Positions 3,459 through 14,173 of a stretch of 15,040 nt of DNA are shown here, in pieces (positions within the stretch are counted from its first letter, which is position 1; every line of letters starts with the position of its first letter). Under the pieces are notes generated by a model. That model had not been told where the DNA came from and did not search any database. It worked only from the letters and a program-made list of their open reading frames with translations. Origin of the DNA: Candidatus Heimdallarchaeota archaeon (GTDB taxonomy: Archaea; Asgardarchaeota; Heimdallarchaeia; Heimdallarchaeales; Heimdallarchaeaceae). The translations under genes were made by a program, and so were the position numbers. Where the stretch lies: the NCBI GenBank assembly GCA_016839945.1, contig JAEOTE010000071.1, forward strand, positions 1-15,040, read 5' to 3'.

Positions 3459-4814
3459 TTAGTTTGTTGCTGCAGTTATGTTAATATCTTCTATCAGAAT
3501 ATAAGGTATAAAAATAGGATAAGAGGGTGGTTCCCATTTCTTTATTTGCTTGTTCTCTTTACTCATAGCTTTGATATTTTTAAAGATGTTTGGCATTGTA
3601 TCGCTTATTCTTAACTCTCTAACAGGTTGAGAAATCTCTCCTTTTTCAACTAGAAACATTCCATCTCTAGGAATACTTGAAAAAATTCCATCTGTATAAC
3701 TTGTAAATCTTGTATACCAGGTATTTGTTATGAATAGAGTTGGTTTATCTTTTGTGATTTCCAATAATTCCTCAAAGGAATGTTCTCCTGGTTCAAAGAA
3801 AATATTTGAGTTTTCGGGTGCGACTAATCCAGCATTACCAGTACTTGTTGTACCTGCTTTTTTAGCAGTTGATGTATTATGTATAAATCCTTTTAGAACA
3901 CCATCTTCAACAATTAGACTCCTTCCTGTGGGATGTCCTTCATCATCAAAAATCTTTGAACCCAATCCATTTGGTAATAAAGCATCATCATATACAGATA
4001 TAAAGTCTGGACCTATTTTTTCTCCAATTTTATCTTTTAACCATGATTGTCCTATTTCAACACTAAATGGATTTGCAACTTCTGGTGTTGCTCCTACTAT
4101 ATTAGCTCCCACTTTTGGAGAGAAAATAACATTATACTTTCCTGGTTCTCCATTTACTCCACCTGTAGACATTTTTGCTATTTTTCCTGCTTCTTTACCT
4201 GCACCTTCAAAATCTAGTTTTGAAGATAGTCTTCCTACAGTTGAACCATATCCAGAACTCTTTTCGTCAACAAAAGATCTTATGTTGAAATCAAAAGCTG
4301 TTGAATTACTCTTTGCTTCTGCACCACGAGAAGAAAGAATATGAGTCTCTGTAACATCCCATACTAAAACACCAGCTGATCTCTTAGCTCCTTCGTTTTC
4401 TGCAGCTCTTATAGCTGTTTCTACTTTATCAATAGATTGATCGTGAAAATCAAGAAATTCTGGGTCAACTAAGAATTCTATATTTGGATAACTGAAAGGA
4501 CCATCAGAAATTCCATAATAATTCTGATTAGGAGGAAGAGCATTTGCTAATTTAAGAAGTGATTCTAGAGTAGAAGTAATTGTTTCCTTAGATATATCTT
4601 CAAAAAAAGTGGCAACAGTTTTAGAATCTTTTGCAGCATATATATCAACATTCATTGAAGCCCAATTTTTGGCAATCGTTATTTGACTATCAGAAAAACG
4701 AAGTTGTGATCTATTACTTCTTTCTGTGTTTATTATATAATCTTCAAAACCTAAATCAACTAATTTCTTTGAAGTTAAATCAAGTATACTCTGTACATCA
4801 GTTTTTTCTACCAT
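3459..4814 (-). CDS. pmbA: TldE/PmbA family protein (non-catalytic partner of TldD); probable start ATG 4814 (ORF track starts at GTG 4823)
   Basis: Motifs PGKYNVIFSP, FDDEGHPT, LIVEDGVLKGFIHN, STGNAG, FLVEKGEISQPV. No HExxxH. Directly downstream of tldD. GGTGA SD at 4820-4824 lies 5 nt before ATG 4814. Confidence 0.9.
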   Translation of the reverse strand: MVEKTDVQSILDLTSKKLVDLGFEDYIINTERSNRSQLRFSDSQITIAKNWASMNVDIYAAKDSKTVATFFEDISKETITSTLESLLKLANALPPNQNYYGISDGPFSYPNIEFLVDPEFLDFHDQSIDKVETAIRAAENEGAKRSAGVLVWDVTETHILSSRGAEAKSNSTAFDFNIRSFVDEKSSGYGSTVGRLSSKLDFEGAGKEAGKIAKMSTGGVNGEPGKYNVIFSPKVGANIVGATPEVANPFSVEIGQSWLKDKIGEKIGPDFISVYDDALLPNGLGSKIFDDEGHPTGRSLIVEDGVLKGFIHNTSTAKKAGTTSTGNAGLVAPENSNIFFEPGEHSFEELLEITKDKPTLFITNTWYTRFTSYTDGIFSSIPRDGMFLVEKGEISQPVRELRISDTMPNIFKNIKAMSKENKQIKKWEPPSYPIFIPYILIEDINITAATN

Positions 4815-4819
4815 TAATC

Positions 4820-6268
4820 TCACCTTACCTCCACATTACGAATCCTCATGAATGACCCACCATGATATACTGGCGCCCCTTGCATTGGATCTCCTTTCCC
4901 ACATGTTGCTGCATCAAATTCAAGTAAATCTTTCTTAGCAACAGCATCTACAGAACCCCATAATTTTGGAGTTGTTGTTTCAAGAACAGGTCTTCTAACC
5001 ATATGTTTAATTTCACCATTTTCTATAAGATATGCCTCTAGACCTACATACTTAGATTGATAGCGTCTATCATCTATATTCCACTCTGTGAAATCATTCA
5101 TAAAAACACCCAATTTAATGTCTTCAGTCAATTCTTCAAATGAGAAACTACCTGGTGCTAAATATGTATTAGCCATTCGAGGAATAGGTTCTCTATTGAA
5201 TCCAATAGCTCTAGCTGCAGCTGTACTTTGTGTTTCCATAAAAGCAGCACTTTCTCTATTATGCAACATCTCTTCAAAAATACCCTTTCGGTGGAGATAT
5301 CTTGGACCAGCTTTTATTCCTTCATCGTCATAAAGATAGAAACCATAAGAACCTTCTAATGTAGGATCATCAATAATCGTTACATGTTCAGATCCAATCC
5401 TCTCGCCAATCATTTCTTGATTGAGATAGCTTTCACCAGCTTGTGCACCTTCTCTTCCTAAAATTCGATCTGCTTCAGAAGGATGACCAGTATTCTCATG
5501 TGCGCAGATTCCAATAACATTTGGACCCACAACATAATCTATAGTCCCTTTTGGAGCTTCTTTTGATTCAGTAACAATCTTCCCCAAAGTTTTAGCTTTA
5601 TTTTCTATATAATCATTAATATTCCAGAAATCTAACGCCTCTAATCCACCAGCTTTACCTTTCTGAATAAATGTCTGTTCTTTTGAACCTGTATTAGGAT
5701 TAACTGCAACTATTAAACCAAATAACTGAAGTAAATCTATCTCACTCTCAATTCTTGCTCCTTCATTAGTTACAATTAATTTCTTTTGTGTTTGATCATT
5801 CATAAAGAAGTATCTAAATGGAATAACAGCTCCTGTCTGTAATTCAGAAACTATCTTGTCAATTGATAACAGTCTCTCCATTTTTTCTTCTGGATTTACT
5901 TCAAATGGTCTTTTGCCATTTACACCCTTTGACTCATATTTGGCTTCATGAACTTCTTCATCACTAAATTTTATTTTCTTTGTTCTCCTCTTCCCTGATA
6001 ATTCTGCCATTTTTGTAGCAAAGGCAACAGCTATTTTCATTTCTTCTTTTGTCATCTCATTGAAACTAGCAAAACCAACTCCTCCATCCTTAAGAACCCT
6101 GATCCCTATACCTCTACTTCTGTTTATCCCTCCCAGCTCTGGAACACCATTCTTAAGAATACTTACATTTCCTCCAAGTTTTTCATATCTTGCTTCAATA
6201 TATTTAGCTCCTAGTTTGCTCCCTTCATCTATTGCTTTTTCAACCAAATCATATGGATCTGAAGTCAT
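4820..6268 (-). CDS. tldD: TldD family metalloprotease; probable start ATG 6268 (ORF track starts at TTG 6274)
   Basis: GIGIRVL, metal motif AHENTGHPSEAD (HExxxH, nt 5483-5500), TIIDDPT, YDDEG, PIPRMANTY, and the C-terminal CGKG Cys ligand. TATA-like box at 6291-6298 lies 23-30 nt upstream of ATG 6268. Confidence 0.94.
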   Translation of the reverse strand: MTSDPYDLVEKAIDEGSKLGAKYIEARYEKLGGNVSILKNGVPELGGINRSRGIGIRVLKDGGVGFASFNEMTKEEMKIAVAFATKMAELSGKRRTKKIKFSDEEVHEAKYESKGVNGKRPFEVNPEEKMERLLSIDKIVSELQTGAVIPFRYFFMNDQTQKKLIVTNEGARIESEIDLLQLFGLIVAVNPNTGSKEQTFIQKGKAGGLEALDFWNINDYIENKAKTLGKIVTESKEAPKGTIDYVVGPNVIGICAHENTGHPSEADRILGREGAQAGESYLNQEMIGERIGSEHVTIIDDPTLEGSYGFYLYDDEGIKAGPRYLHRKGIFEEMLHNRESAAFMETQSTAAARAIGFNREPIPRMANTYLAPGSFSFEELTEDIKLGVFMNDFTEWNIDDRRYQSKYVGLEAYLIENGEIKHMVRRPVLETTTPKLWGSVDAVAKKDLLEFDAATCGKGDPMQGAPVYHGGSFMRIRNVEVR

Positions 6269-6329
6269 GAACAAAACTCAAACTAGAAATATTTAAAGAT
6301 ATTCAAAAATAGATTAAATAACAAAAATT

Positions 6330-11628: not shown

Positions 11629-11985
11629 GTGACATCTATTAATGAAATAACAAAAAAAATAATAGAATTTAGAGATGCAAGAGAATGGAAAAAATATCAT
11701 ACTCCAAAAAATCTTGCATTATCTTTAATAGTAGAAATCGGAGAACTCTTTGAATTAATTCAATGGCAATCTGAAGATGAAATAAAAAATCAACTTGAAA
11801 GAATAAAGAAACAAACTGAAGAAGAGATCTCAGATGTCGCTATATATCTATTCCTTTTATCTCATGAATTAGGAATTGATTTAGAAGAAACTATTCCAAA
11901 GAAAATAGAAAAAAATTGGTTGAAATATCCAGTTGGTTCTCTCTCTGAAGATAAAATAAAATGGGGAAAAAGTGAAAGAAATTAA
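11629..11985 (+). CDS. MazG-like all-alpha NTP pyrophosphohydrolase (DCTPP1/RS21-C6-like)
   Basis: FRDAREWKKYHTPKNLALSL, EIGELFE (ExxE), EEISD (ExxD), KIEKNWLKYP. GTG start. Confidence 0.9.
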   Translation: MTSINEITKKIIEFRDAREWKKYHTPKNLALSLIVEIGELFELIQWQSEDEIKNQLERIKKQTEEEISDVAIYLFLLSHELGIDLEETIPKKIEKNWLKYPVGSLSEDKIKWGKSERN

Positions 11986-12746
11986 GTAATTAAAGCTCCC
12001 CAACGTTTTGTAAAAACATATGTTCTTATTCTCCCACCAGCGTCTTCTTTTACATCAAAGAATTTCAGTTCTAACTTGTCAGCTATCTTCTCCATATGAG
12101 TTAAAGGTCTTGCAATATTTTTTCTAAAAACTTTGCTTTTTATTGTCTTGAAAACTTCTTTAGTTAAGGATATAGGCATTAGAAAAGGTGATTTTGGATA
12201 ATACTCTCCAACAACAATCATCTGTCCATCCTTAGCTAAGATTCTCTTACATCTTGAGAGTAGCTTTTCTTGATCTTCTCTTGATAATCTTTTTAGTGCA
12301 AAGATTATAATGACATTTAGAAAAGTATCAGTAATATCAGATATCTTTTCAAGGAAAAATGGTTTCATTTCCAGTTTTTCCAGAATCTTCTTATCTTTAA
12401 CCTCTGTTTTAGGACTTACATAGGATACAGAAGATTCTCTAGCAGTCACTTTTATTCCGTTTTCTGCCATTCTTTCTGCGAATTTTCCAATTTTTTCACC
12501 AATAACCAGGGTTGGTCCTTGTTTTAATTTGCTAAAAATCCAATCATAAATATCAGGAAGGAAAAGATCTATGTTGACTGTTTCCTTCAATTTTTTTGAA
12601 ACAGCTTGAAAAGAATCAGATAATTGTTGTTCTATCTTCTTGGCACCTGTTAATTCTTCTTCCTCTTCTGTTTTTTCTATTTGAGGGATATCCTCTATGG
12701 ATGGTTGTTCTTCCATCGTTATCACTTTTGGATTTTCATCTGCCAT
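11982..12746 (-). CDS. Class I SAM-methyltransferase-like fold with degenerate motif I and an acidic N-terminal extension
   Basis: GPTLVIGEKIGKFAERMAENGIKVTARESS parallels VLDIGCGTG..A..LA..G..V.gvD.S. TFLNVIIIFAL parallels motif II (FD.V....L). RCKRILAKDGQMIVV parallels motif III (R.LKPGG.l). Confidence 0.65.
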   Translation of the reverse strand: MADENPKVITMEEQPSIEDIPQIEKTEEEEELTGAKKIEQQLSDSFQAVSKKLKETVNIDLFLPDIYDWIFSKLKQGPTLVIGEKIGKFAERMAENGIKVTARESSVSYVSPKTEVKDKKILEKLEMKPFFLEKISDITDTFLNVIIIFALKRLSREDQEKLLSRCKRILAKDGQMIVVGEYYPKSPFLMPISLTKEVFKTIKSKVFRKNIARPLTHMEKIADKLELKFFDVKEDAGGRIRTYVFTKRWGALIT

Positions 12747-13381
12747 TCAAAAGTTGCATCAATTATTTCATTCTTTGAGGGTAAATCTTCCTCTTTAGTT
12801 CTTTTCAGCATTTGACAGAATTTATCAATTTCATAGAAAACAGAACCTGAAATACCAATTGTCATTAGACTGTCTTTGGTTTTTGTTAGAATAGCAATTA
12901 TATCCCCAGCATTTTCAAGAGATACTTGAGGTAGTAATGTCAGTCTTTCTCTCAATTTAACTAATTCTTCTTCTGGATTTAAACTAATTGTAACAGTTGT
13001 TGAAAATCCTTGTTTAATCATTTCCAAAACTTTTCCTTCAGCTTCTTCCAAAGAGTTCACGACATTATTATTATAATAATAAGTTGCCAGTCTAACAGCT
13101 ATTTGTTTTAAACCTGCTTCTAAGTCATGTTCTGACAAATCAGGAATATTGTGCAGTAAACCCATTCTAATAAGAATAAGATCTCTGTTCTTCTTAGCGT
13201 AATTCAATTCTTGCTCAGTAATTTCTTTAATAGTGTGTAATCTTTTAATAAGAGCTGAAAAGCTTTCTAAATCCATATTAACTATGTCTTCTCTAGTTAG
13301 AAAAGGTTTGATTTTTTCAATAATCTTCTCCCAAAGAAGTTCAGATTCTTCTTCGAATCCTGCGCTATTTAGGGAACTCAT
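12722..13381 (-). CDS. Hypothetical all-alpha-helical protein, overlapping the downstream gene by 25 nt
   Basis: 219-aa ORF with ATG start, amphipathic Glu/Lys/Leu-rich helices and no TM segment. TATA-like TTTAATA about 23-29 nt upstream. No confident family. Confidence 0.75.
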   Translation of the reverse strand: [219 protein letters not shown]

Positions 13382-13468
13382 AAGAAGTTTATATAAAGAA
13401 AACTATTAAATTTTATGTTAGAATTTCAGAATCTAAGCAAAAAAATCATTTTTTGATTGCTTTCTTCG

Positions 13469-13481
13469 TAAATCTTTTATT
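13469..13481 (+). promoter_or_regulatory. BRE/TATA for the gelsolin-like gene (probably leaderless)
   Basis: TAAAT-CTTTTATT, with the TATA-like element 24-31 nt upstream of ATG 13505; no SD. Confidence 0.5.
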
Positions 13482-13504
13482 ACTGCTCGTATACATTAAC
13501 AATC

Positions 13505-14134
13505 ATGACTGTTTACCAAGTAGTAAGGAAAAGACTGAAACCATTAAAAGAGCCTTATAAATTCAAAAATGGCGATGTTTATCTATTAGTAACAACTACT
13601 AACATCTGGATCTGGTTGGGGAGTAAATCCTATTGTGATGATAAAGCTGTAGGAGCTTGGACAGCTAAAGTTATTGAAGAAGAAAATAAGGATTTATTAA
13701 TCAAAACAATTGTTGAAGGAGATGAACCTCAAGAATTCAAGGATTTAGTTAGCTTTGAAGTAGTTGAAGGTGATACTCCTGGTTTCTTGAAACACTTTGA
13801 GAAAAAAGAAAATATCGATTACAGACTTCTACAAATCATTCAAAAACCAGATGGAGCAATTGAAACTGTCGAGGTACCAATAAAAGCTAAAAATCTAAAA
13901 TCAGGTGATTCTTTTGTCTTAGACGCATGGGATGAAATCTATGTCTGGATAGGCAAAAAGAGTCAAGTTAGAGAAAAATATGAAGCTGGAAAAATAGGCA
14001 GAGCTCTTGATGTAGAAAGAAAAAGAAAACCAGTAATTTTTACAATTGAAGAAACACAAGAACCTAAAGGTTTCAAAAAGATGATTGATGAGATAGCAAA
14101 GAGAGACAAAGAACTCGAAAAGCAGAGAAAGTAG
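13505..14134 (+). CDS. Two-domain gelsolin/villin-family protein (Asgard 2DGel-like actin regulator)
   Basis: Two gelsolin repeats: FKNGDVYLL..IWIWLGSKS..DD...IVEGDEPQEF (aa about 1-84) and LKSGDSFVLD..IYVWIGKKS..E...IEETQEPKGF (aa about 104-195). Joined by GDTPGFLKHF, like the gelsolin G1-G2 linker GGVASGFKHV. Confidence 0.9.
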   Translation: MTVYQVVRKRLKPLKEPYKFKNGDVYLLVTTTNIWIWLGSKSYCDDKAVGAWTAKVIEEENKDLLIKTIVEGDEPQEFKDLVSFEVVEGDTPGFLKHFEKKENIDYRLLQIIQKPDGAIETVEVPIKAKNLKSGDSFVLDAWDEIYVWIGKKSQVREKYEAGKIGRALDVERKRKPVIFTIEETQEPKGFKKMIDEIAKRDKELEKQRK

Positions 14135-14140
14135 TTGTCA

Positions 14141-14173
14141 TATTTTTTAATATTTTTCTATATTCATTTTTTT
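14141..14173 (+). terminator. T-rich tract, putative terminator of the gelsolin-like gene
   Basis: Three T5-T7 runs within 40 nt after the stop codon. Confidence 0.4.

Follow-up and report, generated by a model that had tools for sequence, protein, structure and literature searches.

The 2DGel gene of the window, by which we mean the entire 15,040-base contig C42 of the MAG, is real, and codes for a two-domain gelsolin of 209 aa, indicated here as P0001. The protein is very probably an ordinary Asgard 2DGel, in the tail-less form that is the commonest in the Heimdall family to which the MAG belongs. The 2DGel family had already been published (Akil 2020, PMC7444086; Akil et al. 2022, PMC9433394), and both the family and the tail-less short form of P0001 are known, the gene being a further ortholog. 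What is added here is modest, and concerns the short form itself, which looks derived: it is without the C-terminal KKWWQFWK carried by its sister paralog and by a positional ortholog. The features discussed are reported in Table 1.

Table 1. Features discussed in the text. Positions refer to the window, unless a contig (C) or locus (L) is indicated; residues are numbered on P0001, and conservation is counted in alignment A1 (62 sequences).
Feature	Residues	Position	Strand	Basis or conservation
Candidate BRE/TATA element, CGTAAATCTTTTATTA		13467-13482	+	sole well-conserved block of the spacer across 11 orthologous loci (window and ten others)
2DGel gene		13505-14134	+	ORF, 209-aa product P0001
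Gelsolin domain 1 (D1) core	aa 19-78	13559-13738	+	Pfam match in genome search; D24, D46 and E58 within
Type II site, D1	D24			invariant
Type II site, D1	D46			57/62; Glu in the other 5
Type I site, D1 (candidate)	E58			invariant
WH2-like linker motif LKHF, between D1 and D2	aa 95-98	13787-13798	+	alignment to LKHV of Heim2DGel
Gelsolin domain 2 (D2) core	aa 119-190	13859-14074	+	Pfam match, E 7.6e-12; D135, E157 and D169 within
Type II site, D2	D135			56/62
Type II site, D2	E157			invariant
Type I site, D2	D169			D or E in 62/62
Short charged helical tail, including D201	aa 190-209	14072-14131	+	AlphaFold2 helix 190-208
Oligo-T run T6, candidate archaeal terminator		14143-14148	+	3' of the stop codon
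Oligo-T run T5, candidate archaeal terminator		14153-14157	+	3' of the stop codon
Oligo-T run T7, candidate archaeal terminator		14167-14173	+	3' of the stop codon
unk219 gene		12722-13381	-	219-aa hypothetical protein
Gene next to unk219		11982-12746
PmbA/TldD-type metallopeptidase gene pair		3459-6274	-	frames overlap by 4 nt (4820-4823)
Second 2DGel paralog		C95:4719-5399 (L002:1111-1791)	+	226 aa from the conserved start
234-aa protein with gelsolin-like domain		C89:97111-97815 (L005:1453-2157)	+
Actin gene, one part		C75:1-770	-	split by an assembly break
Actin gene, other part		C64:18073-18593	-	split by an assembly break
Arf/Ras/Roc-type GTPase gene		L020:3005-4915 and L021:3005-4915	+	636 aa

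The gene, its fold and its known relatives

The gene runs from ATG to TAG. A sequence-only reading of the same DNA had described two complete gelsolin repeats in a protein of 209 aa, and had named a search with the Pfam Gelsolin model among its checks. The search was run, and PF00626 matches P0001 with an E value of 4.3e-22, over two stretches that both lie above the cut-off and approximately coincide with the domain cores of Table 1. Among the sequences of solved structures, the top match is 7whf_G, the Heimdallarchaeota 2DGel on rabbit actin (E 1.7e-53, residues 3-203); below it are found Thor 2DGel3 (7c2h), Thor 2DGel (7c2g), horse and human gelsolin and villin, with Loki 2DGel (7whg) in the last position. 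An AlphaFold2 model, for which 62 relatives were used, reaches a mean pLDDT of 76 and features two domains, each composed of a beta-sheet and a long helix, followed by a terminal helix at aa 190-208. When compared to PDB by Foldseek, it retrieves 7whf (1e-24) before 7c2h (1e-19), 7c2g and 7whg, and then gelsolin G1-G3, so that 7whf is the best match both in sequence and in fold, and the two repeats are confirmed. The whole-chain TM to the PDB matches is low, 0.41-0.45, because P0001 was modelled without actin and its flexible linker leaves the orientation of the domains free.

M1 and the N-terminus are kept in all of the 62 aligned relatives: the annotated start is right, and P0001 has no N-terminal extension, as previously proposed. 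Strong purifying selection acts on the gene (dN/dS of 0.016 and 0.041 against two orthologs, each 97% identical).

The nearest characterized protein, and the best match in sequence and fold, is Heim2DGel from LC_3 (OLS25976.1, 284 aa, 7whf; PMC9433394), about 44% identical to P0001 in the Foldseek alignment. Common to the two proteins are the two domains, an aligned linker motif (the WH2-like LKHV in Heim2DGel; LKHF, fitting at three of the four positions, in P0001), the type I and type II residues and an Asp in the tail helix (D222 and D201, respectively). P0001, in contrast, contains neither the 13-aa D1 insertion nor the smaller ones of D2, where the extra calcium sites of Heim2DGel are located, and is without its approximately 58 disordered tail residues.

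Closer still is a tail-less Heimdall 2DGel of 208 aa, TET81546.1 (E29_bin46), named in Akil et al. 2022 (PMC9433394) and identical in sequence to homolog P0006. It comes from another species, is 80% identical to P0001 and shares its length class, clade and type of syntenic neighbourhood: it is effectively an ortholog. The Thor proteins 2DGel and 2DGel3 (7c2g, 7c2h; PMC7444086) are, like P0001, tail-less, two-domain proteins of about 200 aa, but belong to another Asgard phylum, are 34-37% identical and feature LRRV as linker motif. The novelty of the short form, implied by the earlier reading, does not hold, given the characterized Thor form, the naming of TET81546.1 in 2022 and the fact that short proteins make up the commonest length class. 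Asgard gelsolins bear on the origin of the eukaryotic cytoskeleton; to this, the gene described here adds little beyond the form already listed.

Eukaryotic gelsolin G1-G2 (1d0n, 3ffk, 8vkh) shares with P0001 the domain fold and a co-linear alignment: aa 33-193 correspond to gelsolin 58-220, that is to G1-G2 (E 2e-32, for the whole protein). Identity is lower, 22-27%, and the eukaryotic proteins have 3 or 6 domains. The proposed equivalence of P0001 to a bare G1-G2, roughly the minimal severing unit of gelsolin, therefore stands as far as sequence co-linearity is concerned, but not as a description of how such a unit is placed or how it arose: in the Heim2DGel-actin complex D2 is placed on subdomain 4 of actin rather than at the filament-side site of G2 (PMC9433394), and the short form appears to derive from tail loss.

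Candidate calcium sites and predicted action on actin

The sites of P0001 were mapped by alignment to Heim2DGel (7whf) and to horse gelsolin. Judging from this alignment, signature residues of both type I and type II calcium sites occur in each of the two domains (Table 1). For the type I candidate of D1, E58, the residue is a Glu aligned to the Asp of MLDKEN in Heim2DGel, in a register that may be off by one residue relative to human D109.

The WH2-like motif of 2DGels has been defined as a Leu, two basic residues and a Thr or Val (PMC9433394). The LKHF sequence matches this definition at positions 1-3, while position 4 is a Phe instead of Thr or Val. In alignment A1, L95 is invariant, K96 is found in 55/62 sequences, H97 in 57/62 and F98 in 52/62, with Ile, Leu or Val elsewhere at the last position. 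The linker (aa 92-103) has a pLDDT below 50 in the free model, as expected where a segment becomes ordered on actin.

The charged helical C-terminal tail reported from the sequence alone is also found: it comprises 20 aa (FKKMIDEIAKRDKELEKQRK), of which 8 are basic and 5 acidic, and in the model it prolongs, as a helix, the last helix of domain 2. Its D201 is invariant in the 62 sequences and is aligned with Asp222 of Heim2DGel, a calcium ligand located among the first 10 tail residues, which are ordered (PMC9433394).

For P0001, we infer actin binding, calcium control and specific activities by analogy with the characterized proteins. When the Thor, Heim, Loki and MKD1 2DGels bind rabbit actin, D1 occupies the cleft formed by subdomains 1 and 3, and the actin is severed, capped and sequestered in strict dependence on calcium (PMC7444086, PMC9433394). 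Thor 2DGels are calcium-dependent, and sever, cap, sequester or bundle rabbit actin (PMC7444086); Heim2DGel severs, caps and sequesters only in the presence of calcium, and Loki2DGel shows weak activity only, as weak capping (PMC9433394). Since characterized 2DGels vary in this way, from bundling to severing and to weak capping, the precise or dominant activity of P0001 is not readable from its sequence. In human cells, Heim2DGel remains able to dismantle actin filaments upon calcium release when its tail is deleted (PMC9433394), which shows the natural absence of a tail to be compatible with activity.

In the proposed mechanism, the LKHF linker would run up the face of actin, and a second, calcium-dependent contact would come from D2 and the beginning of the tail helix, where D201 lies. 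Acting on the lokiactin of its own cell, P0001 would as a result sever and cap filaments and sequester monomers at 1:1; without calcium, it would be inactive. Compact by nature, and having neither the insertions nor the tail, the protein could serve as a 2DGel for structural work with a cognate Heimdall actin.

Length classes and the C-terminal motif

The gene is present in 29 of the 31 species genomes of the GTDB family, with two copies in most genomes of the two largest genera. When P0001 and the best 120 of its 166 homologs are considered, lengths of 204-209 aa prevail, 204 and 208 aa being the most frequent. Taken together, the two observations indicate that the 209-aa form is the normal form of the lineage, and not an exception.

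Within the same set (P0001 and the best 120 of 166 homologs), length and C-terminal sequence go together. The 69 proteins of 214 aa or less all finish in a short charged helix, and none of them ends in KKWWQFWK; in the 52 proteins of 222 aa or more, a polybasic stretch always precedes a terminal WWQFWK or a near variant of it, the KKWWQFWK motif being matched in 46 cases and replaced by near variants in the other 6. The two classes are sister clades, with SH-aLRT values of 99 and 94, in a tree obtained by a quick search without bootstrap, in which the order of the basal forks is provisional. P0135, P0132 and P0123, compared to PDB sequences in order to label the clades, are not identical to any solved protein, and LC_3 itself is not in the fetched homolog set.

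The long class is represented in the same genome by a second 2DGel paralog, located on contig C95, which is 57% identical to P0001 and ends in the polybasic-aromatic KKWWQFWK. The motif is also found at the position of the short form: P0080, a motif-bearing protein of 222 aa from another lineage of the family, is 59% identical to P0001 and is located at the same syntenic locus, with the same order of BCAT, MazG, a methyltransferase-like gene, unk219 and the gelsolin gene. More distant, or basal, Heimdall relatives feature related polybasic FW ends. From the sister relationship of the clades, the basal FW ends and the motif of P0080 at the same locus, the short form is most simply explained as derived, through loss of this C-terminal end at the ancestral locus, rather than as a primitive minimum.

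The same observations may be read further, in terms of sub-functionalization. P0001 could be the soluble member of a pair, having lost, after duplication in Heimdallarchaeaceae, the KKWWQFWK motif, by which the other copy would be targeted, possibly to the membrane or to another partner; the cell would thus dispose of one free and one localized calcium-regulated actin-severing protein. This possibility, which refines the main explanation without contradicting it, is tentative and on balance doubtful. It fits the partition of the motif by length and by clade, the motif of the second copy in this genome and of P0080 at the syntenic locus, the related FW ends of distant relatives and the presence of both copies in most genomes of genera g1 and g2; furthermore, the tail of Heim2DGel altered localization in human cells, leaving actin dismantling unchanged (PMC9433394). 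Yet a role of KKWWQFWK in targeting to a membrane or a partner, and membrane binding in particular, is guessed from its composition, the tree stems from a quick search, and the two copies may be merely redundant. The string WWQFWK was not found in the literature searched. A wider role of the motif in this genome, as a sorting signal common to C-termini, was ruled out, its sole carrier ORF being the gelsolin paralog.

As a reading for the Heimdallarchaeaceae, in which one paralog would keep KKWWQFWK and the other would have lost it at the ancestral locus, the proposal of a soluble and a tethered severing protein, the latter perhaps at the membrane, is unlikely. If true, such a pair would be an early case, predating eukaryotes, of actin regulators dividing their labour in space. 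P0001 and its KKWWQFWK-tailed paralog could be used to probe whether Asgard cells position actin severing at particular sites.

Locus, expression signals and host genome

The 2DGel gene divergently adjoins that of unk219, a hypothetical protein whose nearest Atlas clusters are Asgard-only hypotheticals, and for which no Pfam or PDB match was found. The unk219 gene overlaps the next one by 25 nt. The divergent arrangement of unk219 and the 2DGel gene is found in all of the 10 orthologous loci and in locus L020, but the neighbourhood is syntenic as a whole across the orthologous loci, including BCAT, MazG, the methyltransferase-like gene and an ABC ATPase, and more distant 2DGels have different neighbours. 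Since the whole region is syntenic, close kinship accounts for the adjacency without any specific link: it is probably retained synteny, and unk219 was rejected as a functional partner. That P0001 has the gelsolin fold but has lost actin regulation, for example as a calcium-binding or scaffolding protein acting with unk219, is very improbable. In its favour are the adjacency just described and the weak activity of Loki2DGel on rabbit actin (PMC9433394); against it, the actin-facing linker motif and all the calcium signature residues of P0001 are conserved, and the adjacency is accounted for by kinship.

The 2DGel gene is preceded by a spacer of 123 nt. The conserved block found in it, CGTAAATCTTTTATTA, resembles an archaeal BRE followed by a TATA box, and is a putative promoter, in line with the separate TATA element proposed for this gene from the sequence alone. 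It is centred about 26 nt upstream of the A of the start codon, and no Shine-Dalgarno is found in between, an arrangement that suggests a leaderless or near-leaderless mRNA. The gene would be transcribed alone from this element, probably as a leaderless messenger. The T-rich terminator also proposed is retained as a candidate: T-runs follow the stop codon in 10/10 orthologous loci, as they do in the window (Table 1). In a genome of 32% GC such runs are also frequent by chance, and are consistent with an oligo-T terminator without proving it. A scan for sigma-70 promoters and hairpin terminators gave nothing above chance, as expected for an archaeon, and thus no hairpin terminator.

The MAG consists of 3.0 Mb in 186 contigs, with a completeness of 88% and a GC content of 32%. 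An Asgard host, as deduced earlier from the gelsolin itself, is confirmed by the origin of the homologs: every named one comes from Candidatus Heimdallarchaeota or Heimdallarchaeaceae MAGs, and the syntenic contigs are likewise labelled, all but one. The exception, locus L009 (JBHLQZ010000054.1), is attributed to a 'Candidatus Thorarchaeota archaeon'; it carries a 97%-identical 2DGel gene, with neighbours as on Heimdall contigs, and the Thorarchaeota label of its MAG is probably wrong.

One canonical eukaryote-like actin gene is found in the genome, split between contigs C75 and C64. The two contig ends share an identical overlap (LSSSAEREIV...MEKTY), indicating an assembly break, and not two actin genes. 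In its translation, the Glu of VPVYEGF and that of GMEKTY are those we take to be Glu167 and Glu241 of rabbit actin numbering. In the Heim2DGel complex these Glu residues touch the type I calcium ions (PMC9433394), and the actin of this genome retains them. A divergent actin relative is located on contig C119. Pfam Profilin has no match in this genome, nor in any of the control genomes, and is thus uninformative on Asgard profilins. With a eukaryote-like actin and further gelsolin-domain genes encoded, the genome is that expected from the inference, also made earlier, of an Asgard cell with a regulated actin system.

A protein of 234 aa, encoded on contig C89, contains a weak, single gelsolin-like domain at its N-terminus (Pfam Gelsolin E 0.0015, below the cut-off; Thor ProGel 7c2f E 0.003). 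The domain is followed by a Pro/Lys-rich repeat linker (KPKPKPKAEPKPKPKAEPK...) and by a C-terminal domain without an assigned kind; by its sequence, the protein is a possible GelX-type one-domain gelsolin.

In loci L020 and L021, from another lineage of the family, the orthologous 2DGel gene is immediately preceded, at a distance of 85 nt and in the same orientation, by the Arf/Ras/Roc-type GTPase gene. A 2025 preprint reports that Lokiarchaeum gelsolins and an Arf GTPase co-immunoprecipitate with lokiactin. Elsewhere in the window, the PmbA/TldD-type metallopeptidase genes, whose frames overlap, probably form one operon.
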